Source: Bacillota bacterium
GTDB taxonomy: Bacteria > Bacillota > SHA-98 > Ch115 > JABLXJ01
Assembly (NCBI GenBank): GCA_013178125.1
Contig: JABLXJ010000013.1
Coordinates: 7,751-71,750 of the forward strand
DNA: 64,000 bases
Direction of reading: 5' to 3'
Position numbers and translations under genes: made by a program. Of the stretch, positions 32,097-60,006 are shown piece after piece. Position 1 is the first letter of the stretch. The number at the start of each line of letters is the position of its first letter. Below the pieces are notes generated by a model that was not told the DNA's origin, did not search any database, and was given only the letters and a program-made list of their open reading frames with translations.

Positions 32097-32176
32097 TAGG
32101 ACGACATGGAAAACCATATCTATCTGAAGGTGCTTTGAAGGTGTTTGAGGGTAAGGTGTTCGAGGGAGGTAGAGCA

Positions 32177-35688: not shown

Positions 35689-35853
35689 CGCATGCCGCCG
35701 TGCCGTCAGCGGCCCGGTGATTCAGTTTATACCAGCAATCCAGCTGGCGCCAGCGATCGAGCAACCGAGCAACCGAGTAATCGGGCAATCGAGCTGGCCA
35801 CCCCAGCTGGCCATCCAGACGCCGATACCATCCAGAGATCGGGGGTGGGCTCC

Positions 35854-38800: not shown

Positions 38801-40725
38801 TGCTCGTGGCACGCGCCGTGGCGGGGCGCGATTCCGACGCAATGCAGGTGTCGTTGCCTGTCAGGCCGTGCGGGGTGGAGCGGAGGGAGGCGGTTGCAGG
38901 GGAAATTGCAGGGTCCCGGGGAGCCGGGGGCGCCGGGAGCGCCGCGGGAGCCCGAGCTGGAGAGGAAGCTGGCGCGGGAGGAGGCGCACCGTTAGGGTCA
39001 ACATGGAGGCCTACGGCAGGGCCGGCTCAGATCGAGTTTAAACTACCATCGGACGTGATACCGGGCACGGCAAACCTCGAGATAAGGCTCTCCCCATCCA
39101 TGGGGGGTGCGGTCTTCGGGGCCCTCGATTACCTGGCATCCTACCCTTACGGCTGCGTTGAGCAGACAATGAGCTCCTTTTTGCCAGACATCGTGGCCGC
39201 GAGAGCCCTATCAGATCTGGGTGCTAGCGATCCCGAGCTCGAGAAGAGCCTTCCCCGGATGGTGAACGATGGGCTGCAGCGGCTCTACCGGTTCCAGCAT
39301 TACGACGGCGGCTGGGGCTGGTGGGAACACGACGAGACGGATACTCGAATGACCGCTTATGTTGTTTGGGGCCTGGCCCTTGCGCGACAGGCGGGGTTCC
39401 AGGTTGACCAGAGGGTTATCGACCGGGGCAAGAAGGCCCTGTATGAGGCATTGATGAAGCCCTCCTGCCTCGATGAGCTGGTCTACACGCATTACGCTCT
39501 GACTCAGGCCGGAGCCAGGGAGCCTGAGCTCATCCGTCTTGACGAGGCCCTCGCCAGGCGGGACGAGCTGACCAACCTGTCCAGGGCTTTGCTGGCCATG
39601 ACCTTGAAGGGCCTGGGCAGGGAGGCTGACGCAGGTCGCGTTCTCGAAGACCTGAGGCGCTCGGCGCGTGAAAGCGCCACAGCGTGCTACTGGGAGTCCC
39701 GTGGGAGGGGCCTGCAGGTTGAGGATGAGAGCGATGAGGACGACCTGTGGCAGGACAATAAGGTCGAGACGACTGCCTATGTGCTCCGGGCCTTTATGGC
39801 GGTGCGACCGGAGGATGCGCTGGTGCCAAAGGCGGCAAGGTGGCTTATGAATGTTCGCCAGGGCAACCGGTGGGCATCTACGAAGGATACGGCGGCTGCC
39901 GCGCTGGCGTTGCTTGAATTCCTGAAGGTGAAGGGGAATCTCGCGCCCCGCTTCTCGGCGAGGGTCTATGTCGATGGGAGAATGGTCGGGGAGCTGACGT
40001 TCACAGGGGGCGACGTCTTCGCCGGGGAAAAGGTAGTGCGGCTCGACGGGCTCGACGTCCATCCTGGGCGACCTGTCCGGGTCGGGATAGAAAAGGCCGG
40101 GGAGGGGAAGCTTTATTACGCAGCTGCCATGGAGTTCTATGTTCCTGCGCCTCGTGGGACCGGGACCGGGACTGTGACTGGGACCGGGGACGTTGCGTCT
40201 CGTGCGACCGGCGATGAGGGGGGTATTGCCGGAGGTAGAGCTGCGGGCATTGAGGTGGTCCGGGGCTATTTCACCCGTGAGGTGCACGAGCGCCGGGACC
40301 CGGGCGGGGAGTCACGGGGAGATAAGGGGTACACTTATACGTATAAGCCGCTCAGGGGACCAGTGAGGGCCGGGGATGAGGTGTTTGTCAGGTTGCTTAT
40401 CAAGGCAGACCGTCCCTATAGGTACATGATGATCGAGGATGCGATACCCAGCGGGTTTGAGGTCGTGGACGATTATATCGACAGCTATAGCTGGGATTTC
40501 TGGTACGGGCGAAAAGAGGTCAGGGATGCAAAGGTGGCCTTCGCCAGCAGCTATCTAAGGAAGGGTGCGAACGAGATAATCTACAGCCTGCGCGCGGAGC
40601 GCCCGGGCCGGTACCGCGTGGCTCCCACGAATGTATGGTGCATGTATGATCCGGAAATCACCGCGGTGGCGGGCGCGTCCGAGATCGCCGTCGAGGAGGC
40701 GGGCGGTCATGCCCTCACGGAATGA
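35854..40725 (+). CDS. Bacterial alpha-2-macroglobulin family protein with an intact thioester motif
   Basis: About 1600 aa with repeated MG-type beta-domains. Thioester site YPYGCVEQTMSSF (Cys codon 39154-39156). Signal-like segment ALCILALIWALLCVLMPGAAPAAVWA. Start uncertain (the ORF is open from 35692). Confidence 0.85.
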   Translation: MQCCVKDRLDRCRDENEPGYSGDRARGGVRGGVRYEALCILALIWALLCVLMPGAAPAAVWAREAAPFYLYTTERVFSPQEKPYVMARGTGAGSGAGTPRGLELEFEVYRFDPFTLIEKEKTLSRVGSVTPEDARLVASFSLTPRRRDKSGDFLLKVPFSPPGPGGYLVVARDQRGRKQATWVIVTRLGLVTKQANNALVVYAQDFASGRPFAGVLVRVYDGHTAIASGYTDRNGLLYVGKAGLPRNAVVVARYGPNFAHVNSTYYWEDSRYKVYAYTDRPVYRPGQEVFFKGIAREDTGTGGDYRVLGGEKVLVDIRDAGDASVYRAELVTNEFGAFGGQFTLGREPALGTYRILTTVKGSTQYAWFKVAEYRKPEYQVTVKCPRPTYVAGDRVPVEVSASYYFGAPVAGARVRYYVYSQPYYTYFSPPEEEGYYSYLSDEGMYYGELVTQGEAKTDGGGVARFSVATRKIGRNRRFIIEARVVDESRREVMGRTSVVVARGTFEIALRPERYVLKPRERVEIKVRTEDLEGKPVAQRLETRVYRVEWQGKVMRRWEAMSVRVATGRDGRGGFTFLPREEGSYEIEIRGSDERGNVIATTELIWVTGEEYVLDSYGGPELDIVTDKVSYDRNDVARVVVNTTQKDVFALVTIEGYRLYSAEVVHLAGHSRVFEIPLRREYSPNIYFGVTLVAGKRLISREKAIYISPREKFLNVTIKPDKDTYGPGEEATYTIKATDSAGKPVRAELSFGLVDASVYAVQGEMAPDIRRFFYGARANRVVTNYSFPEWYYGGADKDAGAGETRKWFPDTAAWEPFVITDGRGNARLKVRLPDSLTTWRATVRAHTLDTSVGSGTCDIRASKEFFVRVATPRFLTQGDETVISTIVHNYTSRSIQAKVSLEVSGSGVEIGAVREAGGASAGSGGGKGKGEGEEGAATARGAAMAKGVRAGAGAGAGARVVSVAPGGAGRVDWRVKANGVGNAMLVARAVAGRDSDAMQVSLPVRPCGVERREAVAGEIAGSRGAGGAGSAAGARAGEEAGAGGGAPLGSTWRPTAGPAQIEFKLPSDVIPGTANLEIRLSPSMGGAVFGALDYLASYPYGCVEQTMSSFLPDIVAARALSDLGASDPELEKSLPRMVNDGLQRLYRFQHYDGGWGWWEHDETDTRMTAYVVWGLALARQAGFQVDQRVIDRGKKALYEALMKPSCLDELVYTHYALTQAGAREPELIRLDEALARRDELTNLSRALLAMTLKGLGREADAGRVLEDLRRSARESATACYWESRGRGLQVEDESDEDDLWQDNKVETTAYVLRAFMAVRPEDALVPKAARWLMNVRQGNRWASTKDTAAAALALLEFLKVKGNLAPRFSARVYVDGRMVGELTFTGGDVFAGEKVVRLDGLDVHPGRPVRVGIEKAGEGKLYYAAAMEFYVPAPRGTGTGTVTGTGDVASRATGDEGGIAGGRAAGIEVVRGYFTREVHERRDPGGESRGDKGYTYTYKPLRGPVRAGDEVFVRLLIKADRPYRYMMIEDAIPSGFEVVDDYIDSYSWDFWYGRKEVRDAKVAFASSYLRKGANEIIYSLRAERPGRYRVAPTNVWCMYDPEITAVAGASEIAVEEAGGHALTE

Positions 40726-40735
40726 GGAGGCCCAG

Positions 40736-41869
40736 ATGCGTGCAAAGGCGCAGGCGGATGCGAATGCGAATGCGAATGCTGATGCTAATGCTTATGCTAA
40801 TGCGGAAGGGCAGGAGTATGCGCCCACCTCGCATAGGCGGGCGCTCAGCCTGCGGGGGCGGGCTTGGGTTGCGATCGCCTGGGCTGCGGTTGCCTGTATC
40901 ATCGTCTTGATCCTCGTTGCCATCGCCCCGGCTGTTGTCCCGGTCCTTCGCGGGGTTCCAGAGGGACCTGGCGGATGGTCGGGAGGTGCCGAGGGAGAGG
41001 TCGGGGGTGAGCCCGGGAATGGGCCGGCGGAATTGGTGGGGCCAGGCGGTGGTGGGGCTGGGTGCGGCGCCAGCGGGCCTTCGAGCGGCCAGCCTGCCGA
41101 TGCTGGGCAGCCCGTTGTGGTTGCGAGCTTCTCGACCGCGCTCGAGGAGGGCGAGCTCACGCGCAACAATAACATCCGGCTCGCAGCGGAGGCCATAGAC
41201 GGGACGAGGCTCGCCCCGGGCGCCGTTTTTTCGTTTAACGCTATAGTCGGCCCCCGCATACGGGAGAAGGGGTACCAGGAGGCGAAGGTCATTGTCGAGG
41301 GTGCGGCCGCGCCTGGCATCGGAGGTGGAATCTGCCAGGTTTCTACAACGCTTTACAACGTGGCGCTCCTGGCGGGCATGGAGATTCTCGAGCGGCATCA
41401 CCACTCCAGGCCCGTCGGTTATGTGCCGCTCGGCCGGGATGCGACTGTTGCAGAAGGAAGCCTGGATCTGAAATTTCGGAATCCGACGAGGGATACCATA
41501 ATCCTCAGGGCGGGGGTGGACGGTAATCGCTTGCTCATCGAGGCTCTGGCGGAGAGGCCTTTAGGGAGGAAAGTGGAGATACTCACATCGATCGAGGAGG
41601 TCGTGGAGCCCAGGGTGCTTGATAACCCCCCTGTCTGTGGTGGCGCCCGGGATGCCGGCACGGCGTTCCCGAGCGCGATCGCAAGCGGGCGCGAAGGCTA
41701 CAAGGTCCTGACATGGCGGGTAACCCATTACCTGGACGAGGACGGGGGCGGGGACCAGGGTCAGGGTGGCCCAAAGCCGGCGACAGAGACCAGGGAGCTT
41801 ATCTCAGAGGATTACTACAGGCCCGTGGATGTTCCATACATAGTTCATGGTGCTAACAGGTATCATTAA
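40736..41869 (+). CDS. VanW-family protein, membrane-anchored
   Basis: VanW core FSFNAIVGPRIREKGYQEA...GGGICQVSTTLYNVALLAGMEILERHHHS. TM segment VAIAWAAVACIIVLILVAIAPAVV. ATG at 40736 follows a GAGGAGG RBS. Confidence 0.8.
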   Translation: MRAKAQADANANANADANAYANAEGQEYAPTSHRRALSLRGRAWVAIAWAAVACIIVLILVAIAPAVVPVLRGVPEGPGGWSGGAEGEVGGEPGNGPAELVGPGGGGAGCGASGPSSGQPADAGQPVVVASFSTALEEGELTRNNNIRLAAEAIDGTRLAPGAVFSFNAIVGPRIREKGYQEAKVIVEGAAAPGIGGGICQVSTTLYNVALLAGMEILERHHHSRPVGYVPLGRDATVAEGSLDLKFRNPTRDTIILRAGVDGNRLLIEALAERPLGRKVEILTSIEEVVEPRVLDNPPVCGGARDAGTAFPSAIASGREGYKVLTWRVTHYLDEDGGGDQGQGGPKPATETRELISEDYYRPVDVPYIVHGANRYH

Positions 41870-43387: not shown

Positions 43388-44224
43388 TTGATCATTTTGA
43401 GCACAAATATCTGCGTCCTTGCGAGCGGGAGCTCGGGCAATTGCACCCTCATACAAACCGATACCACCAGGGTTTTGGTCGACGTAGGGCTCCCCGGCAA
43501 GGTGGTTGTGGAGCGCCTTCTTGCGACCGGCGTCCACCCTGGTGACGTCGATGCCATCCTCATAACCCACGAACACGCTGACCATGTAAGCGGCCTCGGC
43601 ACCTTGTCGCGGGCCCTCGATATCCCCATCTACGCAAGCGAGGCCACTTGGGAGTCGCTCGATGCGAACCCGCGGATTTCCGGACCCATCAGGGAAAAAA
43701 ATAAAAGGATGATTGCAGGCGGAGAACCCTTTGACCTCAAAGATCTTGTGATCCAGCCGTTTCCGGTGCCTCACGACGCAGCAGACCCTCTTGGTTACTG
43801 TATCATCGATGGGCCGAGGAAGGTCGGGATTGCGACGGATGCTGGGCACGCGACGCAGATTATGAAACGGCAGCTGGCGGATTGCGACCTCCTCGTTGTC
43901 GAGGCCAACCACGATATAGAGATGCTCATGGTCGGGTCCTACCCCTGGGCTTTGAAGCGGCGCATCCTAAGCGACCTGGGTCATCTTTCAAATGAGGCAA
44001 CAGGGGAATTCCTGGGATCTATTGTCACCGAGAGGACGTCAAATATCCTGCTTGCGCACCTTAGCAAGGAAAACAACGTCCCGGAGCTGGCTCTTCTTAC
44101 GGTGATAGCTATCCTTAAGCTTAACGGTATCTCCGTAGGAAAAGATCTGCGAGTAGGCCTCACCTATCGCAATAGGATGACCCGGCCCATCAAGATCGAG
44201 AAGGGGTATTGCAAGGTTTGTTGA
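43388..44224 (+). CDS. MBL-fold metallo-hydrolase (YycJ/WalJ-like)
   Basis: ASGSSGNCTL, the HEHADH metal motif, and conserved context immediately upstream of rlmH. Confidence 0.8.
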   Translation: MIILSTNICVLASGSSGNCTLIQTDTTRVLVDVGLPGKVVVERLLATGVHPGDVDAILITHEHADHVSGLGTLSRALDIPIYASEATWESLDANPRISGPIREKNKRMIAGGEPFDLKDLVIQPFPVPHDAADPLGYCIIDGPRKVGIATDAGHATQIMKRQLADCDLLVVEANHDIEMLMVGSYPWALKRRILSDLGHLSNEATGEFLGSIVTERTSNILLAHLSKENNVPELALLTVIAILKLNGISVGKDLRVGLTYRNRMTRPIKIEKGYCKVC

Positions 44225-44700
44225 GCATAAGGGTAATTGCCGTTGGGAAGCTGAAGGAGAGGTACCTGTCGGAGGGGGTCGAGGAATACCTCAAACGTCT
44301 CAGGCCTTATGCCAGGGTCGAGATCGTCGAGGTTGCGGAGGAGCCGCTGGGGAAGTCCGCAAGCCCGGCCGACGAGACTCTTGCGAGGCAGAGGGAGGCC
44401 GGGAGGATATTCGATCATATCAGGCCGCATTCTTACTGCATCGCCCTGGATCGCGAGGGGGTGGCGCTCTCCTCAGAGGAGCTTTCGGCAGCACTCGAGA
44501 AAGCGATGCTATCCGGGATGAGCGATATAGCCTTCGTGATCGGCGGCTCAACCGGGCTCGCCACCGAGGTCATAAACAAGGCGGATATGAGGCTTTCGTT
44601 CTCGAGGATGACCTTTCCGCACGGGCTCATGCGGGTCATCCTTCTAGAGCAAATCTATAGGGCATTCAAGATATTGAGAGGCGAAACCTATCATAAGTAA
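44209..44700 (+). CDS. rlmH: 23S rRNA (pseudouridine1915-N3)-methyltransferase RlmH
   Basis: IRVIAVGKLKERYLSEGVEEYLKRL..., IAFVIGGSTGL, and LSFSRMTFPHGLMRVILLEQIYRA (SPOUT fold). The start may be a TTG a few codons in. Confidence 0.85.
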   Translation: MQGLLSIRVIAVGKLKERYLSEGVEEYLKRLRPYARVEIVEVAEEPLGKSASPADETLARQREAGRIFDHIRPHSYCIALDREGVALSSEELSAALEKAMLSGMSDIAFVIGGSTGLATEVINKADMRLSFSRMTFPHGLMRVILLEQIYRAFKILRGETYHK

Positions 44701-48623: not shown

Positions 48624-48781
48624 CTAGGCCAGCTAGAGGGCCATTTCAGAAGCAAACATCCTGCTAAAGGCCATGTTGGAAAACAATAACAGTCGGTTTT
48701 AACCCCTTGGGGCCGTGGTACCCTAAACGTATCTCCCATTGTAAAAAATGGGAGGTTTTTACTTTGGCAAGGGCAAGGGTT

Positions 48782-49702
48782 ATGCGCATTGACAGGAAGG
48801 TAATCTCGACATGGCAGGAAGCCCTATCCGACTTTATCCTTTCCAGGCAAGCCATGGGTCTATCGCCCAGGACAATCAATGACTATCAGCAACATGTCAA
48901 GCTTTTCTTCTCCCGTTACCCTGACGCTTGGAACCCCTCAAATCTCAAACGAGCAGTGATGATGCACATGTCCCATCCTGTGGCACCCGCCACTTTTAAC
49001 AACCGACGGAAGTACCTGAAGATCTTCTTCAACTGGTGTATGGAGGAAGGCATATTCCCCGAAAACCCGTTGTCCAGAGTCCCAAAGAAGAGGGACGAAG
49101 GCCGGATCAGGGACATTAAAGCGGAGGTGCTTGAGCGTCTTATGTCCCTGCCAAACAAAAAGACCTACACTGGCCTGCGTGACTACGCTTTGATCCTCTT
49201 AAGTCTCGATATCGGGATCCGCCCAAGAGAAGCGTTATCTTTACTTGTGTCTGATGTTGACCTGGAAGGTAAGACGGTTACCATCAGGCGCGAGATATCC
49301 AAGACCAGGAAGACCAGTATCCTGCCCATTACTGAGCCGGTTGTCAATGCCCTGAAAAAGCTCGTTCATGTAAGACACCCCGTGTGGGATAAAGACGCAC
49401 CACTCTTCTGCACTAGAGATGGAACACCGCTGACAGTAAGAAGGTGGGAAGCAAGGCTCAAGAAATACTCAGACATCCTGGGAACGAGCGTCACTCCTTA
49501 CGATTTGCGCCACGGTTTTGCCACCTTGTTCTTGAGAGACGGAGGAAACGTATATGCTCTCCAGAAGATTTTACGTCACTCCAGTATGGATATGGTTAGA
49601 CGGTACTTACAATTTAACGATGAAGACATAAGACGACAGCATGAGCTTGCGTCACCTGTAGTGAGGCTCTTAACCAAGACGCCGAGGGTTGGTAAGATTT
49701 AG
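48782..49702 (+). CDS. Tyrosine recombinase / phage-type integrase
   Basis: N-terminal SAM-like domain and a catalytic domain with R...HxxR...Y (LRDYALILLSLDIGIRPREA; DLRHGFATLFL; LRHSSMDMVRRYL). Start moved to the ATG at 48782. Confidence 0.85.
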   Translation: MRIDRKVISTWQEALSDFILSRQAMGLSPRTINDYQQHVKLFFSRYPDAWNPSNLKRAVMMHMSHPVAPATFNNRRKYLKIFFNWCMEEGIFPENPLSRVPKKRDEGRIRDIKAEVLERLMSLPNKKTYTGLRDYALILLSLDIGIRPREALSLLVSDVDLEGKTVTIRREISKTRKTSILPITEPVVNALKKLVHVRHPVWDKDAPLFCTRDGTPLTVRRWEARLKKYSDILGTSVTPYDLRHGFATLFLRDGGNVYALQKILRHSSMDMVRRYLQFNDEDIRRQHELASPVVRLLTKTPRVGKI

Positions 49703-49763
49703 ACTCGACCCCTCAAGGACTGGGCATGTATATAAATCCATAGGCAGCTAGAAGAAAGGGCTC

Positions 49764-50456
49764 CTAAAAACCAGGAGCCCTTCTTTCCATCATATGTTTA
49801 CATGCAATCTTGCTGTTCGCCCATATCTCAAATCCCTTTTTCTTCGCCTCCAAGCAGAAGCCCACGTCTTCCCCCTGCTCGTGGTAGCAGTACCTTACCT
49901 CCTCTAATACTTTCTTTTTGAGGAGATATACCGCTCCTGTTACATCACATTGAAACAAGGCGTTTTTCGGGAAGTCCAGATAGTGAGTTATACTGCCGTT
50001 TCTGTGGGCCATTATGTTGGGGAATACCTTTGAGGGATCGTTCCATATCTGGGCGCTCACTATGTCTTTGTCTGCGACTATGAGCTCTTTTAAGGTATAG
50101 GGAGGAACCAGGATATCTGAGTCCACACTGAAGAGGTAGTCCGCTTCCATGTCCAGGGCCTGCTCAACCAGGATGTTTCTGAGCTCGGCGAGACTTACGT
50201 ATATCTTTTTTCTGACGTTCCACGTCCTCTGATCTTCTATCTGACCAAGGTCGTGCTCCAGGATGCGGATTTGTCTATACTCATCCTTATGCTCCCTGGC
50301 AAAGGACATGAGGATCTCTTTTGTCCTGTCTGTGGAGTCGTTTATGACAAAGCACAGAGATAGGTCATCCTTTGGGAAATCCAGGTTATATATGTGGTCC
50401 AGATATTCTCCTATGATCCAATCCCTATTCCTTACCGGGCAGCCGATCACTACCAT
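49764..50456 (-). CDS. Glycosyltransferase family 2-like protein
   Basis: VVIGCPVRNRDW..., INDSTDRT, and a DxD-like SVDSD motif. The assignment is by resemblance only. Confidence 0.55.
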   Translation of the reverse strand: MVVIGCPVRNRDWIIGEYLDHIYNLDFPKDDLSLCFVINDSTDRTKEILMSFAREHKDEYRQIRILEHDLGQIEDQRTWNVRKKIYVSLAELRNILVEQALDMEADYLFSVDSDILVPPYTLKELIVADKDIVSAQIWNDPSKVFPNIMAHRNGSITHYLDFPKNALFQCDVTGAVYLLKKKVLEEVRYCYHEQGEDVGFCLEAKKKGFEIWANSKIACKHMMERRAPGF

Positions 50457-50847
50457 ATGCCCTCGTGTATACCTCCACTATTTGCTGGGCTCTTGCTGCA
50501 TAGTTGTGCTTCTCATAGACCTCCTTCTGAGCCTTTCTCGCTATTTCTTGCCTTTCTTCGCTGTCCATGTGGAGGATCATTTCCATCAGTTCTAAAGTCT
50601 CCTCTTTATTTTTTGCCTGGAATATGAGGTCGCCAAAGAGGTTCTCCTGGGCTTTGGTGTAGTGGGCGAGGAATAAACCTCCTCCGCATGCTAGGGCTTC
50701 ATACGGCCTCATGGAGGTCTGGGTCGCGGAAGTATCGTCGCAGTTCATCCCAAGGATGATTTTCGCTGAGCTATATACACAAGGAAGCTCCTCGTAAGGC
50801 AGTATGCCACCATAGATGTCCATATGTTTCGGATATGTTCCATTCAC
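50425..50847 (-). pseudogene. C-terminal fragment of a CgeB/GT1-type glycosyltransferase
   Basis: Only the C-terminal domain is present (SAKIILGMN..., RPYEALACGGGLF...). The 5' part is replaced by IS21 debris at about 50846. Confidence 0.5.
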
Positions 50848-51097
50848 GAAGACCGGAGCTGAGCTTCTCTATCAATTTTGCGCCAGCCGCTATGAGAGGG
50901 GCAGCATGATAGTCACCACAAACCTGGAGCTTAGCCAGTGGACGGAGGTGTTTGGGGATGAGAGAATGACAGCGGCACTTCTTGATCGGCTCACCCATAG
51001 GGCCCATATCCTGACTTTAAACGGGGAGAGTTATCGTTTCCGGGAGAGCATGCGTAAACAAGAGGTAGAACGTGAGATGTTGCACACGCCTGCCTAG
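50846..51097 (+). mobile_element. IS21-family IstB helper ATPase, C-terminal remnant
   Basis: ...GAELLYQFCASRYERGSMIVTTNLELSQWTEVFGDERMTAALLDRLTHRAHILTLNGESYRFRES matches the IstB C-terminus. There is no Walker A region and no istA. Confidence 0.65.
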
Positions 51098-51605
51098 GCG
51101 TAGCCTAGGCAGGGGGTGGATCCCATTTTCGTGTCCGCAGTGGTCCCCTTTTTGATTGCCAAACACACCGGAGTGGAGCAATATAAAGCGCGTTCATTAT
51201 GATCTCCTTCCGGACAACATTGGGTTCTGGTTCTCAGATGACTGTGGTTCTAATCCGCCAGATGGTTGAATTGGAAATGTCTTTCTTCTACCAGGATAGG
51301 AGCTATAATTCTCGAAGGCTGTTCTCGGATGGTTTACATCGAACACCCATTCGAGACCCATTCGAAGAGATAAAAACAGCTGGATTTAGTGAATGTAGAA
51401 GTTTACCTTGGCCATCAAGAAGAATTCCCTGGGGTGCTGCCGGAGGTTTTTGCAACGGTTTCTTCTGTGGTGAAAGAGGTTAAGCCGGGAGACATCTTAC
51501 CTATCACTGCCAGGGTTGATGAGGCGATGACACAGGATAGTCCGTCGGACGATTCGATTTGGGCAATCTATCTACCTAATCTGTACTGGAGGTTGACTGA
51601 CTCGC

Positions 51606-53798
51606 TTATTCGCTATCGAAGATACTGCGAAATATGGCCTCGAATTCGGAAACCTCTCTACCATTGAAGACGACTTTGGGGCACAAAGCAAGTATTTGGT
51701 CCCTCATTGTGATTAACTCGCAAGCCCGCAGTGCGCGTGTGGGTTTATCGACGCCGGTAACGCCGTTAGGGTAATAATCTTCGATTGCGCCTTTGGCAAG
51801 CACATTAATCCTGAGCTCTCTCAGGCGTTCAAGTAGCTCATACTTATCATGGAGTTCTGGGTGCCCTTTACGTAGGAGATTGCGACGCCTTGTCTCAGTC
51901 TCCTCAGAAAAAAGTAACTCAATTTCATCTGCCTCGTCATTGGTGATTTGCCTACCATTAGCAATTTCCCGTGCTAGATATTTTAATCTCTGGTATCTTT
52001 CCTGCCAGGTGTACTTACGTACCATCTCTTTGATCTTTTCCCTTGTCAGAGTCCCATCGATTCCTTCATCTTTTGCAATCTTGTCGATGACCTGGAGAAA
52101 TGCTCTCCTCTGATCAGCAACGTCTTCGGTAACCTCTAGTTTATCGAAATCTTCAAGAAGTGCATCTAGGTCAAGTATAGCATGCACCTCAAGCCCGAAC
52201 TTTTCAAAGAACTCTCTATACCTCGCCACATTCCCCTTTCCGTTGATCCTTATGAGGGGGATATTGCGTGCTTCGAAATCCCACTCCTCGTTTAGGATGC
52301 GGGCAACATGGGCTAAATAGATGGCATCGGAATCTCCCTCAACTAGGACGACCTTGCGGGCAAAAAATGCTGCAGAATTGTTCTCGTAACAGATCAGCTG
52401 AAAGGCATCCTTCCGGCGAGTATCATGTAGCAGATTAATCACCATTGGATTTCCATATGGTTTTGCATCGGGTGGGTGATCTTTTGCTAATTTGATGAAT
52501 GTTCCGGTCCCTGTAGGAGAAAAAAATAGTGGTGAGTGAGTGGTGACAACGACATGGTGCTGTTCCGAAAGCCTCGTTAAGGCTTTAAAAAGAATCCGTT
52601 GTCCTGACGGATGGAGATATAGTTCCGGTTCTTCAAAGAGGAATAAGTAATGTGGTCCAGAGGATCTCCTTAGTTGTTGATCTTCGGGCATTGGGGCCCT
52701 TTGCTTCATCTGCAAATCCACATAGCTCCTCAGCAGGGCGAAGGTTACTGACCTCTTGAGACCATCGCCTTTGGTCTCTACCACATCTCTGACACCATCA
52801 TCCACCATTATCTTCGTGCTCGAGAAGACCTGCTTCAGCTCGGGCGGTGGGATGTGTAGTTGTAAATCAACTGTTGGGAAGTTTTCTCTCAGATACGTCA
52901 GTACTTGGGATTCTATTTCCCTAATGTGCGGCAGGCGATTATCGACTACGGCACCATTTTCCGTTGATGTCCTATTGAGCATCGAATTGAGTTTTTCAAA
53001 GGATGCGGCAATCTCCTGAACCTCTACTGTACCCTCTAGCATCCTTAACAGGACACCAATAAGCTTACCAAAGGTTGCGGATTCCTTTATCTTGATTTCA
53101 TCCGTAAGATCCTTGACAGCTGGGATGTATATTGGCTCTGGGAGTAGCCTTTTAATGCTATTTGATATTCCTGTCGGCAGCGGTAAGTCACCCATGGTCT
53201 TTTCGCTCTCTGGTAAAGCTGTAATTATCTCCTGTATTTTCTCCTTTGCTGCCGATTGGGAGGTGATCCCAGCAAATTGGCTTTTGAATTCAGGTAAATG
53301 GCTTTCAAGGATATCCCTGATCTCAGAACCACGCTTGCCCTTCAGGATTTTATCTATAACATCAGGATCAAATCGCTTATCCTTTGGTACCGACCCTAGA
53401 TAGTAATAGTCAGATGAAGATCCATCGACACCATAGCATCTTACGAGTGTTAGTTCCTTATTGGCGACAATGCCTTCCACTCGATCCCTATGTTCGGGGG
53501 CAATCCGCTCTAGATCATCATCGGATATATCACTAAGCGTGACCTCAAATCTAACTGGTTGTGATGGATCATAGAAATCTGAGCTATCGATTCTGGAGCC
53601 GGAGAGAAATAGGCTGAGAGCAAGCAAAACTGTTGATTTTCCTGTATTGTTCTCACCAATTATGCAGACGAATGGGGAGAGATCAATGCGACAGTCCCTT
53701 AGGGCACGGTAGTTGGAGACATGGAGTCTGCTTAGATTCACGGGATTAACGCCTCCTAATAAGACATGCCATACCATTTTATCTTGATTGGATTGCAT
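51606..53798 (-). CDS. OLD-family nuclease (ABC-type ATPase fused to a Toprim domain)
   Basis: Walker A GENNTGKST, FEEPELYLHP (Walker B/D-loop), VVVTTHSP (H-loop), and Toprim VVLVEGDSDAIYL plus a downstream acidic cluster ILDLDALLED. Confidence 0.8.
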   Translation of the reverse strand: MQSNQDKMVWHVLLGGVNPVNLSRLHVSNYRALRDCRIDLSPFVCIIGENNTGKSTVLLALSLFLSGSRIDSSDFYDPSQPVRFEVTLSDISDDDLERIAPEHRDRVEGIVANKELTLVRCYGVDGSSSDYYYLGSVPKDKRFDPDVIDKILKGKRGSEIRDILESHLPEFKSQFAGITSQSAAKEKIQEIITALPESEKTMGDLPLPTGISNSIKRLLPEPIYIPAVKDLTDEIKIKESATFGKLIGVLLRMLEGTVEVQEIAASFEKLNSMLNRTSTENGAVVDNRLPHIREIESQVLTYLRENFPTVDLQLHIPPPELKQVFSSTKIMVDDGVRDVVETKGDGLKRSVTFALLRSYVDLQMKQRAPMPEDQQLRRSSGPHYLFLFEEPELYLHPSGQRILFKALTRLSEQHHVVVTTHSPLFFSPTGTGTFIKLAKDHPPDAKPYGNPMVINLLHDTRRKDAFQLICYENNSAAFFARKVVLVEGDSDAIYLAHVARILNEEWDFEARNIPLIRINGKGNVARYREFFEKFGLEVHAILDLDALLEDFDKLEVTEDVADQRRAFLQVIDKIAKDEGIDGTLTREKIKEMVRKYTWQERYQRLKYLAREIANGRQITNDEADEIELLFSEETETRRRNLLRKGHPELHDKYELLERLRELRINVLAKGAIEDYYPNGVTGVDKPTRALRACELITMRDQILALCPKVVFNGREVSEFEAIFRSIFDSE

Positions 53799-53977
53799 AT
53801 ACTATATTTCCATAACCAACCATAGATTCCTGCTTGAGGACCAGGCTGGCCATTACAGATTTTTAGATGGCCTGCACGTTACAGACAAAGATAGTCGCAT
53901 TCCCGCGCCCTTGGTTATTCTCTTTGCGTGTATGATCTCACGAATAGGCCAACCGTAAGATTCTCATTATCACAAAC

Positions 53978-54006
53978 TTGCGAGGTAGAAGGAAATGGCA
54001 TATATG
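53978..54006 (+). promoter_or_regulatory. Candidate sigma-70-type promoter for the retron transcript
   Basis: TTGCGA (53978-53983), a 17-nt spacer, then TATATG (54001-54006), about 20 nt upstream of the left inverted repeat. The -10 element is imperfect. Confidence 0.3.
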
Positions 54007-54025
54007 TGTCGAAATATGCAGATTA

Positions 54026-54185
54026 GTGAGGGCACTAGTTTTAGGGTCATTTTGCATAGGGCGTGGCCGTGTGCCGGGCGTTAAGCCAGGCCGTTGAATT
54101 GATAGACTTGTGGCCGCGCGGAAGTCCCTCGTCTACCCTCTCGGGTAGCCAAGGTCCTTCCGCGCGGCTCTTGTAGTGCCCTCGC
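54026..54185 (+). ncRNA. Candidate retron msr-msd non-coding RNA
   Basis: Perfect 10-bp inverted repeats GAGGGCACTA (54028-54037) and TAGTGCCCTC (54174-54183) flank about 136 nt. That interval contains a perfect 12-bp stem (54113-54124 / 54157-54168) with a nested hairpin CTACCC-TCTC-GGGTAG. Lies upstream of the retron RT operon. Confidence 0.6.
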
Positions 54186-54220
54186 CCAATTTCGTTAACC
54201 TAGTGAAATGGTGGGATGAT

Positions 54221-55162
54221 ATGCCCTTTGATAGACGCCTCTACCCTGAATCCCTTCTCATACAGGTTCGGGATCGACTCAAGCGGGGCCCGACCGTGAG
54301 TCAGGCGATCCCAAAGTTTCTATTCTTATGTGGCAGGCAATTTGATGCAGGCAGTGGCGCTGATCATATCACTAACCGCGAGTGGGTCATGGAGCACCTC
54401 GACCATTACGCGTCTAAAAACATATCCAGTATCGTGGTTCTATTTGCTGAGCAGCTTTGGATTGGACTTGATATAGATTTGCTGACTTTTGAACACTTTA
54501 TGGCCGGGATAAGCGATATGGTCCTCCTGTTTGTGGAGAGCTGGGGGACGGCGGCTGAGCTCGGAGCCTTTGCTTCCATTGACAGTCTGGTTGAGAAGAT
54601 GCTTGTCTACAATGACAAGAAGTACAGGGAGTCTAACTCATTCATAAACAACGGGCCTATCAAGAAGATTCGGGATTCCAACCCGCATGGCGTGGTCTTT
54701 GGTAATCTGGACTCCATATTCGAGAGCGGGGAGCTTCACGATGCGCTTACACATTTGGATAGCATAAGGAAGACTGTCAAACCCAACACGAGTAACAGGG
54801 TCGAGTTTGTGCCATTTTGTTTAGAGCTTTTGGACCTTATTGGCTTGCTGGGACCAGTTTTGAGGAAAGATCTGATCGAAATATATAAGTCCGTCAAAGG
54901 GTTCGGTAATTTCGACCTTGTACTACCATCGAGCACGTCTTCCATCAGTGCCGCGTTTGCACTTGATTTCCTCCAGATCTCTTCCTTAGCTTGGGAGTCA
55001 TCTGGATATCTACGGCTAAATACGAAGGCAGTAAGGAAAAACTTGTGTCTGCTTGACCTAAGTGACCATGAATTCGAGTGCCTGCGTGCCAAATTTATGG
55101 CCAGGAAGATGAGGTACATAGGCAGTTCCAATCTTCCCGTCTTTGAGGAAAGATCAGCATGA
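54221..55162 (+). CDS. Retron-associated effector candidate (unknown family; possible NDT/SLOG-like N-domain plus a C-terminal helical/DNA-binding-like domain)
   Basis: ATGA stop/start overlap with the RT gene. Motif VLLFVESWGTAAELGAF. The ATG at 54221 follows GGTGGGA; the ORF track GTG start at 54176 would overlap the ncRNA arm. Function is inferred. Confidence 0.6.
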   Translation: MPFDRRLYPESLLIQVRDRLKRGPTVSQAIPKFLFLCGRQFDAGSGADHITNREWVMEHLDHYASKNISSIVVLFAEQLWIGLDIDLLTFEHFMAGISDMVLLFVESWGTAAELGAFASIDSLVEKMLVYNDKKYRESNSFINNGPIKKIRDSNPHGVVFGNLDSIFESGELHDALTHLDSIRKTVKPNTSNRVEFVPFCLELLDLIGLLGPVLRKDLIEIYKSVKGFGNFDLVLPSSTSSISAAFALDFLQISSLAWESSGYLRLNTKAVRKNLCLLDLSDHEFECLRAKFMARKMRYIGSSNLPVFEERSA

Positions 55163-56124
55163 GCTTGATTGAAAGAATCAGTCGCTCCTTGGATATAGAC
55201 GAGAATCTTATTAAGACCATCGCCCGGACCAGCAACAAATACTACCGGGTGTTCTCAATTAGTAAGAAATTTGGCGGAGTCAGGTCGATATACCATCCCT
55301 CACCAATTCTAAAGGTATTTCAATATTGGCTTGTGCAGAATCTCATTTCTCACCTGCCTGTGTCGGAACATGCAACTGCCTATGGGCTTGGATGTTCCAT
55401 TAAGAGAAATGCCCAACTCCATGCTGCGGCCAAGCATATAGTCCGCATGGATGTTAAGAACTTTTTTCCATCAATAAGATTCCAGCTCCTAGCTGATAGG
55501 ATTAATGCCTTCAGGGATACTATCCCAGGCGGAGCATCTTTAACTGAGGAAGATCTTCAACTCATCAATGGCATTTGTTTTGTGCGGGGTAGGCTAGTTA
55601 TAGGCAGTGTCTGTGCTCCAGCAATTTCAAACGCGGTTATGTACCCGTTTGACTGCGAGGTCTCCCAACAGGCTAGAGCTTTGCATCTCACTTACTCAAG
55701 ATATGCGGATGATATCGTGTTTTCGAGTAATGAATGGATTCACCCAAGTATTGTCGAGGATATCGATGGCCGACTGGGCAAATTCGGCATGAAACTAAAT
55801 CGCGAAAAGACGATTTTTATGGGCGGCTCTGATCGGAAGATGGTAACTGGCATTTTGCTCAACACTGGTAGATTATCAATAGGAAGAGCGCGTAAGGAAA
55901 GCATCAAGAAGATGCTATATCAGAAACTGCGTACCGGTGCCGGTGATAATCGGAAGATCTTGGGATATCTAAACTATCTTAGGGATATTGAGCCTGACAC
56001 GTTCAATAGGATGGTGGTTAAGTATAACTCGTTCTTCGGTAGGAATATAATGCGCGTACTAACGGAAGCGCCAGCAGATACACGCAAGGCTCAGGCCGAG
56101 GCGGCTCCAACTAAGAAACCTTAG
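55159..56124 (+). CDS. Retron-type reverse transcriptase
   Basis: YYRVFSISKKFGGVRSIYHPSPILKVFQYWL, NAQLH (retron NAxxH), MDVKNFFPSI, YSRYADDIVFS (YADD), KLNREKT, and RKMVTGILLN (retron VTG motif). About 320 aa with no maturase or endonuclease domains. Confidence 0.9.
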   Translation: MSLIERISRSLDIDENLIKTIARTSNKYYRVFSISKKFGGVRSIYHPSPILKVFQYWLVQNLISHLPVSEHATAYGLGCSIKRNAQLHAAAKHIVRMDVKNFFPSIRFQLLADRINAFRDTIPGGASLTEEDLQLINGICFVRGRLVIGSVCAPAISNAVMYPFDCEVSQQARALHLTYSRYADDIVFSSNEWIHPSIVEDIDGRLGKFGMKLNREKTIFMGGSDRKMVTGILLNTGRLSIGRARKESIKKMLYQKLRTGAGDNRKILGYLNYLRDIEPDTFNRMVVKYNSFFGRNIMRVLTEAPADTRKAQAEAAPTKKP

Positions 56125-56433
56125 ACTAGTATGCAGTATTGGCAATAGCCCTAAAATGTTTATATACCGATTAGTGACAATTGATAGCCAAAACGATGAG
56201 ATCTTCTCGCCGGGCGCGAGATAGATTTTGTGTCTAGGCAGCCTTGCTCATTCAGGATCATTTGGCTCATTTAGATCAGAGTCTATAACGCCACGATGTC
56301 ACTAGCCGGGGGATTGCTCGATGGCCCCAGTCCATTCCTTGTTGCGGATTGATGATATTTTGTAGCATATTCACTGGCAGCTGAAGCGAAAAGCCTGAGA
56401 CGATTTCCTAGTTATCAATGCAATGCCGCCGGA

Positions 56434-56715
56434 ATGCTTATTGTTCCGCTAGCCGCCGCTGCCCATAATGCCGGATCAAAACGCATGGTGCTCACATCCT
56501 CTTTGGCCGTGTATGGGGATGTGGGGGGCCGCCGCTTAGCGAATCGGCATTTCCATCACCAGTTTCACCTTACGCATTTCTGGGCTTATATCAATAAGGC
56601 CGGGCGGATGCTTGGTTATGAGCCGAGGTTTAGCCTTGAGCAAGGCATCCTGGAGAAAGCGGAATGGCTTAGCTGTTTGGCGAAGTGCCGGGAGGAAGTG
56701 GCGGCGGGTTTGTGA
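56434..56715 (+). pseudogene. Degraded fragment of an NAD-dependent epimerase/dehydratase gene
   Basis: ...GSKRMVLTSSLAVYGD... and ...LGYEPRFSLEQGI... are separated by non-homologous sequence. There is no N-terminal Rossmann part. Confidence 0.45.
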
Positions 56716-56757
56716 TAGTGATGCGCCGGGAAGTCCCGTGACCAGCACGGTCGCGTT

Positions 56758-57219
56758 TTGGACGAATCGATGGCGACACGGCGTTCAGCACATACCATGG
56801 CGGAGGAGATACTGAGTCAGACCCTTGACCGGCTTTCGCTGGGATATTATGAGGAAGCACGCGTTCTTGCGGAACGACTTCCGAATGAAGGCAAAGCGCG
56901 TTTTGTTCGTCAGGCGGCTGAAGCTCTCTATCTTCGGAATGAATTTGGCTATAGGAGTGCAGCCCGAATATTCCGGCGCTTTTACGAGACGGCTCAGATA
57001 TTCTCGAATGATAGAGAGGTTGGGAATCTAGCTAGGACTACTGCCCGGCTTGCGAGCTCAGCTAGCAAGATTGGAGACCTCATAGATCTTTTCCATAAAG
57101 CCCAACAGGCTAAAGCGGAAGCCATATGCCATGCTTTGGATCCGATGATGAATACGCCCTTTGCTAAGGAGTTGCTTCCTCGCACTTGCAGCATCTCGTT
57201 TTTCCCATCAAAAAGCTAA
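56758..57219 (+). CDS. Hypothetical protein (helical, no family recognised)
   Basis: A 153-aa ORF between gene debris and an IS3 copy. Coding status is uncertain. Confidence 0.35.
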   Translation: MDESMATRRSAHTMAEEILSQTLDRLSLGYYEEARVLAERLPNEGKARFVRQAAEALYLRNEFGYRSAARIFRRFYETAQIFSNDREVGNLARTTARLASSASKIGDLIDLFHKAQQAKAEAICHALDPMMNTPFAKELLPRTCSISFFPSKS

Positions 57220-57385
57220 GCAACGAAGAAGTGGCAGATGAGCTGTTGCGCGCAAGGTCGAATTTTTTCCAAACACGCCGGATTCTCATGCGTGAAAAAC
57301 GTTCGGGCCAAAAGGCCCTATGGGCCTACCCCGTTTTCGTGGACACCTAGGAGCTTGTGAGGTAAACTAGGAAAGGGGTGTCCAT

Positions 57386-57682
57386 ATGCCAAAGACGAAG
57401 CCACCATATCCACCACAGTTTAGAGCCGAGGCAGTACGCCTGGTACGCGAGAGAGGGAAACCCATGGCGCAGATCGCCGGCGACCTAGGGGTGTCAGTAA
57501 AATCGCTGCGCAAATGGACCAGACAGGCTCAGATTGATGCTGGAGAGCGTGAAGGGCTAACGACTGCCGAGCGGGAAGAGCTCAGCCGTCTCAGGCGAGA
57601 GAACCGGATTCTACGCGAGGAGCGTGAAATCCTAAAAAAAGCCGCGGCCTTCTTTGCCAAGGAGACCGGCCGGAACCGGTAG
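57386..57682 (+). CDS. IS3-family transposase OrfA (HTH)
   Basis: MPKTKPPYPPQFRAEAVRLV..., a leucine-zipper-like C-terminus, and the frameshift heptamer inside the ILKKAAAFF region. Confidence 0.85.
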   Translation: MPKTKPPYPPQFRAEAVRLVRERGKPMAQIAGDLGVSVKSLRKWTRQAQIDAGEREGLTTAEREELSRLRRENRILREEREILKKAAAFFAKETGRNR

Positions 57683-58527
57683 CGGCGTTCCGGTTCGTCG
57701 AGCGTGAGAAGGCCTGTCACAATGTGACCATACTATGCTGGGTACTGGGCGTCTCCACCAGCGGCTACTATGCGTGGCGTAAAAGAGGCCCGTCGGGTCG
57801 TGCACGGCAAGACGCTGAGCTTATAGAACACATCATACGGATTCACGAGGATAGCCGGGGCACTTACGGGGCCCCGGGGATCCATGCGGAGCTTACCATG
57901 GGGATGGGGATCCACTGCTCGAGAAAACGGGTGGCACGCCTGATGCGTGAGGCAGGTCTCATAGGCGTCGTCGGCTTCGGGGTATGACACGCCGCAATCC
58001 GGCTCAGGAACCTGCGCCGGACTTGGTAGAGCGGCAATTTACACCGGAGGCTCCCAACCGTCTGTGGGTGGCTGATATGACAGAACACGCTACGTGTGAG
58101 GGCAAGCTGTACCTGGCAGTCGTAACCGAGGCATTTTCGCGGATGGTCGTAGGTTGGTCAATGGGAGACCGCCCGGTCGCGGATCTGGCGGTCGATGCGG
58201 TGAATATGGCCGTCTGGAACCGTAGACCCGAGCCTGGGGTAATTCACCACTCAGATCACGGGCACAGTATACTGCCATAGCATTCGGTCGCACTCTCAAA
58301 GAGGCGGGTATCCTCGGCTCGATGGGTACGGTTGGTGACGCCTTAGATAACGCGGTGGCTGAGAGCTTCTTTGCCACACTCGAAACAGAACTACTCGACC
58401 GATACAACTGGTCCAGTCGCCAGGCGCTAGCCTCGGCCATCTTCGAATACATCGAGGGCTTCTATAACCGCAGGCGCCGTCACTCGACGCTCGGATACTT
58501 AGTTTCCATTGAAAAATGGACCTCACA
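57640..58527 (+). pseudogene. IS3-family transposase OrfB, broken by at least two extra frameshifts
   Basis: The -1 frame after A7G reads ...FRFVEREKACHNVTILCWVLGVSTSGYYAW. The integrase core is split over three frames (57724-57987, 57984-58280, 58322-58527). Confidence 0.75.
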
Positions 58528-58610
58528 AATATGCATGGCGACAGGCATTTACTCTCCCACAAATGCCCCATTTGATGGTATGATAGAGCTATGCAGAGAA
58601 GGGGAGAGTA

Positions 58611-58970
58611 ATGCTGAGATCTGAGAATAAAATCGCCTATCAACTGAGCCTGGTGGACCAATGGCTGCCTAAATCATACTTCTCTCTCCCGGAAGAACTC
58701 CGAAAGGTGGATGAGCTACTCTCTGATGAGAGGTTCATTGAGCCTTTAAAAAAGCACTTCTCCACCACCTGCGGTAGGCCCGGTACCCCCGTAGTTGTAT
58801 ACCTTCGCATGATGTATCTTATGAACAGCTTTGAAAGGAAGTTGCCGATAGCATCACCTGGCGCAGGTTTTGCCATATCCAGCTCGAAGATGATGTACCC
58901 GACTCCACCCTGGCCAAACTCACTAAAAAGTTCTTACCGCGCAAACCTCAGGGATGAGTCTGTCAGTTAA
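58611..58970 (+). pseudogene. N-terminal fragment of an IS5/IS1182-type transposase (DUF772-like)
   Basis: ...LPEELRKVDELLSDERFIEPLKKHFSTTCGRPGTPVVVYLRMMYL... then loss of frame. A shifted frame continues ...DDVPDSTLAKLTKKF.... Confidence 0.5.
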
Positions 58971-59155
58971 GCCGCTGCCTGATCGCACCAATATCTATTC
59001 CATTCCCCGTTATACCATAGGGTGATAAGTGCGCATAGCGCGTCGAAACCATCTCTCGACCAGCTCATTCCCGCTGATTTCTGTCGCCTCGTTACCCCAA
59101 AAAGGTCTATGTCCCGGTCGTATTCCTGCTCCGATACTCAGAATTATTGACAAGA

Positions 59156-59187
59156 ACACAAAAAACCCGGCCCTCGAAAGGGCCGGG
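59156..59187 (-). terminator. Rho-independent terminator for the minus-strand ORF 59262-59630
   Basis: On the minus strand: CCCGGCCCT-TTCG-AGGGCCGGG followed by TTTTTGTGTT. Confidence 0.65.
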
Positions 59188-59261
59188 CGATAAATCAATA
59201 TTCAAATCGCACCTGTGGGATATGGCCAATAGCGTCCTTCAACGCTTGTTCCCTTGCCGAA

Positions 59262-59630
59262 TCATTTAGCTTCCCCGGATCCTCTTTGGGAAGCCTCTCC
59301 GCAGGCAGGGATAGTTTTATACCGACCGCAAATGGATTCATCCTGATACTGGCTTTGAGTCGGGCTCTTGAGTCCCTGTATGCTCGAAAAACCTATACGG
59401 TTCAAGATCGCCACAACTACATCCACCACCGCCCCCAGGATGAAGTCCTGATACTTCTGCACCCATTCAAGTAGCGTGAAACCGAGCTTGGCGAGCTCGT
59501 CTTTGACTCGGTCCACCACCAGTTTCTTTTTCTCCTCCCCGGGCTTGCCTGTGTCCTCGGTCAAGACCGTGAACGGTATCGCGATTCGAAGACGATATAG
59601 ATATTGATTCAGGATCTTCAAGATGCTCAT
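59262..59630 (-). CDS. Hypothetical protein (weak resemblance to small phage holin-like proteins)
   Basis: A 122-aa ORF with its own terminator. It has a Lys-rich segment and a hydrophobic segment FILGAVVDVVVAILNRIGF. No confident family. Confidence 0.4.
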   Translation of the reverse strand: MSILKILNQYLYRLRIAIPFTVLTEDTGKPGEEKKKLVVDRVKDELAKLGFTLLEWVQKYQDFILGAVVDVVVAILNRIGFSSIQGLKSPTQSQYQDESICGRYKTIPACGEASQRGSGEAK

Positions 59631-60006
59631 AAATCGGAGCTACTTTTCAAATAGTTCATTAAGCAATGGCCTTCGACGCCTCACCCTGAGTTACTGAGGC
59701 CGCCGGTTCTCCAGCTGCTGTCCAAATCATTCACACAATGGTACAGCTCAATGCCTTCAAACCCGCAGGGCTTCGTTGTATTCACGATATGCCATGCCAG
59801 TTAGTGGTAATAACCGACGGTCTCAGTACTAGTTTTGAACTCATATTCAATAGTACTAACGATAAAACAAAATTTCTTAAAATAGGCTACCTCAAAGCAG
59901 GAAAACAGGACTAAATGTTGAATATAGATAATGCATAAACAAGCAATATATTGCATATGTTTTATGAAACAAACATATGCAACCGGAATGGTGGGAAGAT
60001 ACGTAA

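Follow-up and report, generated by a model that had tools for sequence, protein, structure and literature searches.

Does the unannotated intergenic stretch that precedes a candidate effector gene in an uncultured member of the Bacillota encode the template RNA of a retron and, if so, to which of the known retron types does the system belong? In the 64,000 nucleotides of DNA analyzed here (hereinafter the window), the initial annotation had read this stretch as a candidate msr-msd element. The fold of the RNA, covariation in 29 loci, and a downstream effector and reverse transcriptase (RT) that both score above curated cut-offs all support that reading. Judging from comparative sequence evidence, positions 54028-54183 of the plus strand very probably constitute the msr-msd non-coding RNA (ncRNA) gene of a retron with three components, arranged as ncRNA-effector-RT, similar to the St85/Sen2 systems of type II-A1. 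The sequence features by which retron ncRNAs are recognized are present together at this locus, namely end repeats that close the structure, a G at the predicted branching position, msr hairpins, a long msd stem-loop and an adjacent RT gene on the same strand.

Architecture of the predicted ncRNA

The ncRNA is delimited by a 10-bp inverted repeat in which the left, msr-side arm GAGGGCACTA (54028-54037, plus strand) had been described as exactly complementary to the right, msd-side arm TAGTGCCCTC (54174-54183, plus strand). Direct inspection of the sequence and a repeat finder both return this perfect match, and both arms are recovered in the predicted fold and in the family alignment described below; a U.G pair (54027/54184) can lengthen the duplex further. 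In the family alignment, this terminal duplex (helix 1) is paired in 93% of the cells, with double changes in 10 of 11 pairs. The predicted branching G is located at 54038, directly 3' of the terminal TA of the left arm, where its 2'-OH would prime msDNA synthesis, and it faces an opposing G (54173) at the inner end of the duplex. This candidate, which had been singled out from its position next to the left arm, gains support from conservation: the TA-G context, together with the G that precedes the right arm (GTAAG...), is found in at least 24 of the 29 aligned loci, and the right arm opens with GTA(A/G) in at least 25 of the 29. In the window, the left arm ends in CTA-G as opposed to the TTA-G that is usual in the family; the two closest relatives have the CTA-G form as well, with compensation in the right arm.

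The same layout of the junction is seen in experimentally characterized retrons. In Retron-Eco7, the terminal stem closes with a branching G that faces another G, and the distance between these two residues is 127 nt, compared to 135 nt in the window (PMC12673091). In the Ec86 ncRNA, whose sequence is present with 100% identity in 48 E. coli genomes, the junction reads CCCTTA-G ... G-TAAGGG, and the branching G of Ec86 occupies the same position as G 54038; Ec86 and the window share the ...TTA-G / G-TAAGG... logic of the junction, which in both cases is followed by a hairpin and then by CATTGA.

The msr part (54039-54112, plus strand) consists of a variable first hairpin region (approximately 54046-54072), a conserved stem-loop, denoted SL2, of the form GCC-G-GGC/GCC-A-GGC (54073-54091), and an ATTGA motif (54098-54102) that is nearly invariant across the family. 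SL2 corresponds to helix 4 of the family alignment, in which 98% of the cells are paired and most positions are invariant, with double changes in 4 pairs. Helices 2 and 3, in the first hairpin region, are only 60-77% paired, and when the msr halves alone were aligned with MAFFT and folded with RNAalifold, SL2 was the only structure recovered and no pairing was obtained for the first msr hairpin. SL2 plus this first hairpin region place the msr within the range of one to three hairpins that is characteristic of retrons. A hairpin comparable to SL2 precedes the CATTGA of the Ec86 ncRNA, and both SL2 and ATTGA recur in St85-family loci of Vibrio, Pectobacterium and E. coli.

The msd stem-loop (54113-54168, plus strand) is built from a 12-bp basal stem, an inner helix and an apical hairpin. 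The perfect basal pairing that had been claimed between GCCGCGCGGAAG (54113-54124) and CTTCCGCGCGGC (54157-54168) holds, as does the nested hairpin CTACCC/GGGTAG (54133-54138 and 54143-54148, with the loop TCTC); moreover, the repeat finder lengthens the inner repeat to 26-nt arms with 85% complementarity. In the family alignment, the msd helices (6 and 7) are 97% paired, with double changes in all 18 of their 18 pairs, and contain a single G.U among 492 cells, as would be expected if this stem must also fold as DNA. The DNA complementary to 54099-54172 folds at -28.7 kcal/mol (z = -7.5). We infer by analogy that this segment (minus strand) corresponds to an msDNA of approximately 74 nt, the 5' end of which would be templated by U 54172 and the 3' end of which would lie near 54099, just after UUGAA; the ends of the Ec86 msDNA serve as the model for this placement. 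The description of Retron-Eco7 fits as well: its msDNA, at approximately 77 nt close in length to that predicted here, starts beside the opposing G and terminates in an RNA-DNA duplex of 6 bp (PMC12673091).

Folding of the plus strand from 54020 to 54190 yields exactly the proposed geometry of a terminal duplex that encloses 5' hairpins and a long 3' hairpin, with a minimum free energy of -84.9 kcal/mol compared to -61.2 +/- 4.4 kcal/mol for shuffled sequences (z = -5.35; none of the 200 shuffles was as good). When the 422-nt intergenic region was shuffled 2000 times with its dinucleotides preserved, 4.5% of the shuffles contained a perfect inverted repeat of at least 10 bp and 0.35% one of at least 12 bp, so that the nested occurrence of both repeats is very unlikely by chance. 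The minus strand of the locus folds equally well, as is the case for any hairpin-rich DNA, and the strand therefore had to be decided from other evidence. Helices 1-4, that is, the terminal duplex and the msr, contain 72 G.U as against 27 A.C cells in the family alignment, which identifies the plus strand as the RNA strand; together with the lack of minus-strand family matches in the hidden Markov model (HMM) search and the orientation of the RT gene, this asymmetry led us to reject a minus-strand reading.

With respect to transcription, a scan of 53700-54300 against the sigma-70 consensus gave no promoter match, and an intrinsic-terminator scan of the same interval returned none, with no terminator-like T run after the hairpin. 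By eye, TTGCGA-17 nt-TATATG (53978-54006, plus strand) is a possible, weak candidate for the promoter of the ncRNA-effector-RT operon. Another inverted repeat (53993-54003/54219-54229; 11 nt, 91% complementary) flanks the ncRNA on both sides, with the effector start codon inside its right arm. Given that no counterpart was seen by eye in the closest relative of the window, we consider this outer repeat probably a chance match; were transcription to start far enough upstream, the repeat could conceivably mask the start codon.

Homologous loci, covariation and the extent of the family

The RT is without close relatives in the databases, the best being 58% (L161, a Bacillota metagenome-assembled genome), 55% (L165) and 51% (L081) identical to it; among phage, plasmid and E. 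coli records, none exceeds 37%. A set of 160 loci was gathered from genome and metagenome collections by RT alignment, the closest ones being added by exact look-up. In L161 and L081, the region just upstream of the effector gene is visibly homologous to the window ncRNA, with all helices kept: the left arms read GGGGGCACTA-G and AAGCCCGAAGGTTCTA-G, respectively, with matching right arms, and the msd stems differ in sequence (GCCGCACGAAAAGC... and GTCGCGCAAAGC...) with the pairing retained. Within these three sequences, double changes are already present in 14 of the 46 predicted pairs.

A covariance model (R1) seeded on the window, L161 and L081 detected 29 plus-strand matches among the loci, every one of them immediately upstream of an effector and an RT gene; on the minus strand, it matched only the msd hairpins of its three training sequences. 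The pair counts reported here come from the 32 aligned matches, that is, the 29 plus-strand loci and the 3 reverse-strand msd hairpins. The paired arms are kept in the homologous loci, which the initial annotation had named as a test, with compensatory double changes in 43 of the 46 pairs. Overall, compared to 39-45% in controls with the 3' partners displaced by 1-3 columns, 90.5% of the cells are paired, a percentage that is somewhat inflated by the fitting of the alignments to the R1 structure. The covariation score reaches 0.64 as opposed to 0.08-0.10 in the slid controls and 0.15 in shuffles, with none of 500 shuffles attaining the observed value, and the picture is unchanged when the window, L161 and L081 are removed.

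Because alignments that are fitted to a model favor pairing, an independent test that relies on a sequence HMM was added. An HMM built from 23 more distant relatives only gave one match in the 64-kb window, at 54036-54175 on the plus strand (E = 2.4e-17). The same HMM added further loci, and iteration brought the family to approximately 40 loci, with no minus-strand match; the Vibrio, Pectobacterium and Ec86 loci were not reached by the iterated search. The carriers of the ncRNA include Acidobacteriota, Nitrospirota, Bacillota, several classes of Pseudomonadota and Bdellovibrionaceae.

With its filters off, R1 yielded insignificant scores only for Ec86 and for five St85-family loci of Pseudomonadota (Vibrio, Pectobacterium, Pantoea, Endozoicomonas and Pseudomonas), so that the tie to the experimentally studied ncRNAs rests on the common layout and on short motifs. 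Two low-scoring R1 matches (L036 and L038) fall at the expected place, and the succession of a2-G, SL2, ATTG and G-a1 is discernible by eye in these two loci and in a P4-like satellite of E. coli (L171). The latter, which carries sid, psu and delta genes, encodes an St85-family retron in the same order as the window, ncRNA-effector-RT, and its region 2290-2460 reproduces the layout of the window, with CCTTTAC-G, the SL2 equivalent GTC-G-GGC/GCC-A-GAC, TTATTG, a long hairpin and G-GTAAAGG. We take the setting of this satellite retron to resemble that of the retronphage phiR73 (Ec73).

A search of Rfam returned nothing for the locus at E <= 10 and nothing for the whole window at the gathering score. 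This blank is uninformative because the validated Ec86 ncRNA (L170, 2501-2670) likewise matched no retron family at E <= 1 in release 15; retron ncRNAs are effectively unmodelled in that release.

The effector, the reverse transcriptase and the retron type

The gene directly downstream of the ncRNA (54221-55162, plus strand) encodes a 313-aa effector (toxin) of the St85/STM3845 family, which scores 136.6 bits against the NCBIfam model NF038232 (retron St85 family effector protein; cut-off 100) and 131.9 bits against the PADLOC NDT_II-A model PDLC02928; a second PADLOC model, PDLC02930, covers residues 34-297. By sequence comparison, this protein combines an N-glycosidase fold of the NDT-like type with a C-terminal domain. 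It matches the effector chains of the solved RT-msDNA-effector structures of Retron-Eco1 (Ec86; 7v9x and 8qbk) with E = 7e-12, and its motif ESWGTAAELG (residues 106-115) aligns with ESPGSFTELG of the Ec86 effector, a protein of the same family, the shared pattern being E-S-x-G-x-x-x-E-L-G-A-F. The start of the open reading frame as listed, GTG 54176, falls within the right arm of the terminal repeat. The alternative that had been put forward, ATG 54221, is to be preferred since the protein aligns from residue 2-3 (MPFDRRLYPES as against MFDRRLYPES) with the 311-aa effector of L161, to which it is 51% identical over the full length, and since GGTGGGA is found 4 nt upstream of this codon. The start codon is corrected here to ATG 54221, which leaves 37 nt between the end of the right arm and the effector gene.

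The start of the RT gene (55159-56124, plus strand; 321 aa) overlaps the effector stop by 4 nt. The RT scores 265.5 bits against NF038233 (retron St85 family RNA-directed DNA polymerase; cut-off 235) and 262.8 bits against the PADLOC RT_II-A model PDLC02939, and it contains the hallmark motifs NAQLH (84), YADD (182) and VTG (229). Its matches in the PDB are retron RTs (E = 3e-35 to 5e-25), among which the type I-A RTs Ec78 and Ec83 (E of approximately 1e-30) are better than the RT of Ec86.

The protein-family traits of type II-A1 are found in these two genes, namely an St85-family RT of clade 1 with the NAxxH, YADD and VTG motifs, and an STM3845-family, NDT-like effector with a C-terminal domain. 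Type II-A1, which includes Sen2/St85, Vc81 and Ec73, shares RT clade 1 and the ncRNA type with type I-A, whereas Ec86 belongs to type II-A3 and RT clade 9 (Mestre et al., 2020, PMC7736814). The best PADLOC models for the window are PDLC02939 for the RT, with RT_I-A second, and PDLC02928 for the effector; the Ec86 proteins, scanned against the same library, instead select PDLC02941 and PDLC02930. The L161 RT and an St85-family RT from Vibrio also have PDLC02939 as the best model and RT_I-A as the second, and PDLC02928 is the best for both effectors that were scanned outside Ec86. The system in the window is thus classified as II-A1-like on the basis of these best models and the clade scheme, and the second place of RT_I-A is expected given that RT clade 1 shares its ncRNA-RT module with type I-A. 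A type II-A3, Ec86-like assignment is at odds with the best PADLOC models, with the gene order, which is effector-ncRNA-RT in Ec86 as opposed to ncRNA-effector-RT in the window, and with the failure of R1 to detect the Ec86 ncRNA.

Among characterized systems, the window retron is most readily compared to Retron-Sen2 (St85) of Salmonella Typhimurium and the other II-A1 retrons, with which it shares the RT and effector families at the NCBI curated cut-offs and from which it differs in its host, an uncultured spore-forming member of the Bacillota, and in the CTA-G that replaces TTA-G at the end of the left arm. Retron-Eco7 (Ec78, type I-A), for which an RT-msDNA complex has been solved (PMC12673091), employs the effectors PtuA and PtuB (ATPase and HNH, respectively), in contrast to the NDT-like effector of the window, where no PtuA or PtuB genes are present beside the retron.

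Could this system be a retron by descent that has decayed and no longer produces msDNA or provides defense? The broken IS3 and IstB genes and the split glycosyltransferase open reading frames nearby would be compatible with decay, as would the lack of a consensus promoter match and the departure of the left arm from the usual TTA-G. We nevertheless consider this explanation very unlikely: neither open reading frame is truncated, both retain their catalytic motifs and score above the curated cut-offs, all the helices in the window are perfect or near perfect, and CTA-G also occurs, with compensation in the right arm, in the two closest relatives.

Even less probable, in our estimate, is that the structure functions solely as a regulatory 5' leader, such as an attenuator, a protein-binding site or an RNA-stability element, that is never reverse transcribed. 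Its location in the 5' UTR of the operon, a short distance before the effector start, is what such a leader would predict, but its layout, with a conserved G opposite a G, msr hairpins and a long hairpin, is one peculiar to retron templates, the hairpin is not followed by a terminator-like T run, and the element always accompanies a retron RT. Moreover, G.U pairs are almost excluded from the long hairpin only, for which there would be no reason in a purely RNA element.

Genomic setting, proposed mechanism and implications

The retron lies in an island (48707-59700) bounded by a tyrosine recombinase gene (48707-49702) that also contains the split glycosyltransferase open reading frames (49764-50847), an IstB/IS21 fragment (50816-51097) and the broken IS3 transposase, which spans three open reading frames (57386-58624). 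An IstB fragment is also located directly upstream of the ncRNA in L161. Divergently from the retron, and separated from it by the 422-nt intergenic region common to both, the minus strand encodes a 730-aa OLD-family ATPase-Toprim nuclease (51606-53798; PADLOC Old, 319.9 bits). OLD-like ATPase-Toprim proteins serve as the effectors of some retron types (I-B/Eco8). A composite system in which the retron and this divergent nuclease together provide two effectors is highly improbable: the start of the nuclease gene, which lies 230 nt from the left arm in the shared intergenic region, and a PADLOC ATPase-Toprim_I-B match of 60.9 bits would speak for it, but the stand-alone Old model matches best, the score against the Eco8 effector model NF038234 is 46.5 bits where the cut-off is 250, the gene and the retron lie on opposite strands, different genes occupy the upstream region in L161, the closest relative, and tblastn against 170 other loci produced three weak partial matches only. 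A type I-B assignment for 51606-53798, with an Eco8-type effector, is rejected given the score below the NF038234 cut-off, the opposite strand and the lack of conservation beside the relatives. By these comparisons, the OLD-family nuclease is probably an independent defense gene in the same island, since it is not found beside the relatives of the retron.

The neighbors of the retron in this chromosome of an uncultured spore-forming member of the Bacillota, represented by a metagenomic contig, include the genes for YpeB, SleB, YlbF and RlmH. In L165, which encodes the second-closest RT, the RT gene adjoins rlmH (SPOUT methyltransferase; L165, 2192-2671); in the window, rlmH (44209-44700) is located approximately 10 kb upstream of the retron, and the proximity of rlmH to both retrons may reflect a shared chromosomal neighborhood in related hosts. 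Further upstream, the 622-aa product of a gene at 32135-34003 (plus strand) weakly matches an archaeal-type ATPase domain and, at its C-terminus, an Mrr_cat restriction-endonuclease domain; this is possibly another defense gene. The GC content of the window is highest (0.59-0.64, compared to approximately 0.45-0.55 elsewhere) over a gene for a 1677-aa bacterial alpha-2-macroglobulin (35692-40725, plus strand) and the VanW-like gene that follows it (40631-41869).

With respect to the function of the retron itself, we propose a toxin/antitoxin mechanism on the basis of homology with Retron-Sen2 and Retron-Eco1. Retron-Sen2 is a tripartite toxin/antitoxin system in which the RT and the msDNA constitute the antitoxin (Bobonis et al., bioRxiv 10.1101/2020.06.22.160168). 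In Retron-Eco1, according to the summary given in PMC12673091, filaments of the RT, msDNA and N-glycosidase hydrolyze NAD(P)+, and the system is triggered by phage Dcm. By analogy, transcription of the operon in the window would begin upstream of 54028, and pairing of the 10-nt arms would place G 54038 beside the 3' end of the msd template. The RT (55159-56124) would recognize the msr hairpins, including the conserved SL2 (54073-54091), prime synthesis from the 2'-OH of G 54038 and copy the msd RNA from approximately 54172 back to approximately 54099. Removal of the template by RNase H would then leave a hairpin DNA of approximately 74 nt joined to the msr RNA. The RT and this msDNA would keep the NDT-like effector (54221-55162) inactive, until the msDNA is modified or degraded by phage functions, whereupon the effector would be freed and the infected cell would stop growing or die. 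The chemistry of the branch, the ends of the msDNA, the toxin/antitoxin behavior and the role in phage defense that we infer for this retron all derive from such analogies.

The retron is a fresh example of the known Sen2/St85 kind and, for its class, is biologically ordinary. The present analysis turns an unannotated intergenic stretch into a complete retron system, with a template RNA, a predicted branch site, a predicted msDNA, a toxin and an RT. Furthermore, the contrast between msr helices that tolerate G.U pairs and an msd stem that is restricted to Watson-Crick pairs provides a simple marker, at the level of sequence, of the part that is reverse transcribed; this contrast may be a general, sequence-only marker in retron RNAs and could help to delimit other msd regions. 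The covarying alignment of approximately 30 ncRNAs could also seed a public model for the RNAs of type II-A1 retrons. A more speculative and, in our view, rather doubtful proposition is that the window RNA belongs to a subfamily of its own, recognizable from sequence in approximately 40 loci by SL2 (GCC-G-GGY/RCC-A-GGC), ATTGA and the TA-G/G-TA junction and without cover in public RNA libraries, and that the Bacillota branch of this subfamily, with CTA-G and a predicted msDNA of approximately 74 nt, could differ from the studied enterobacterial retrons in RT recognition or in the trigger. If this is the case, the Bacillota branch might be of use as a compact retron for editing in Gram-positive hosts.
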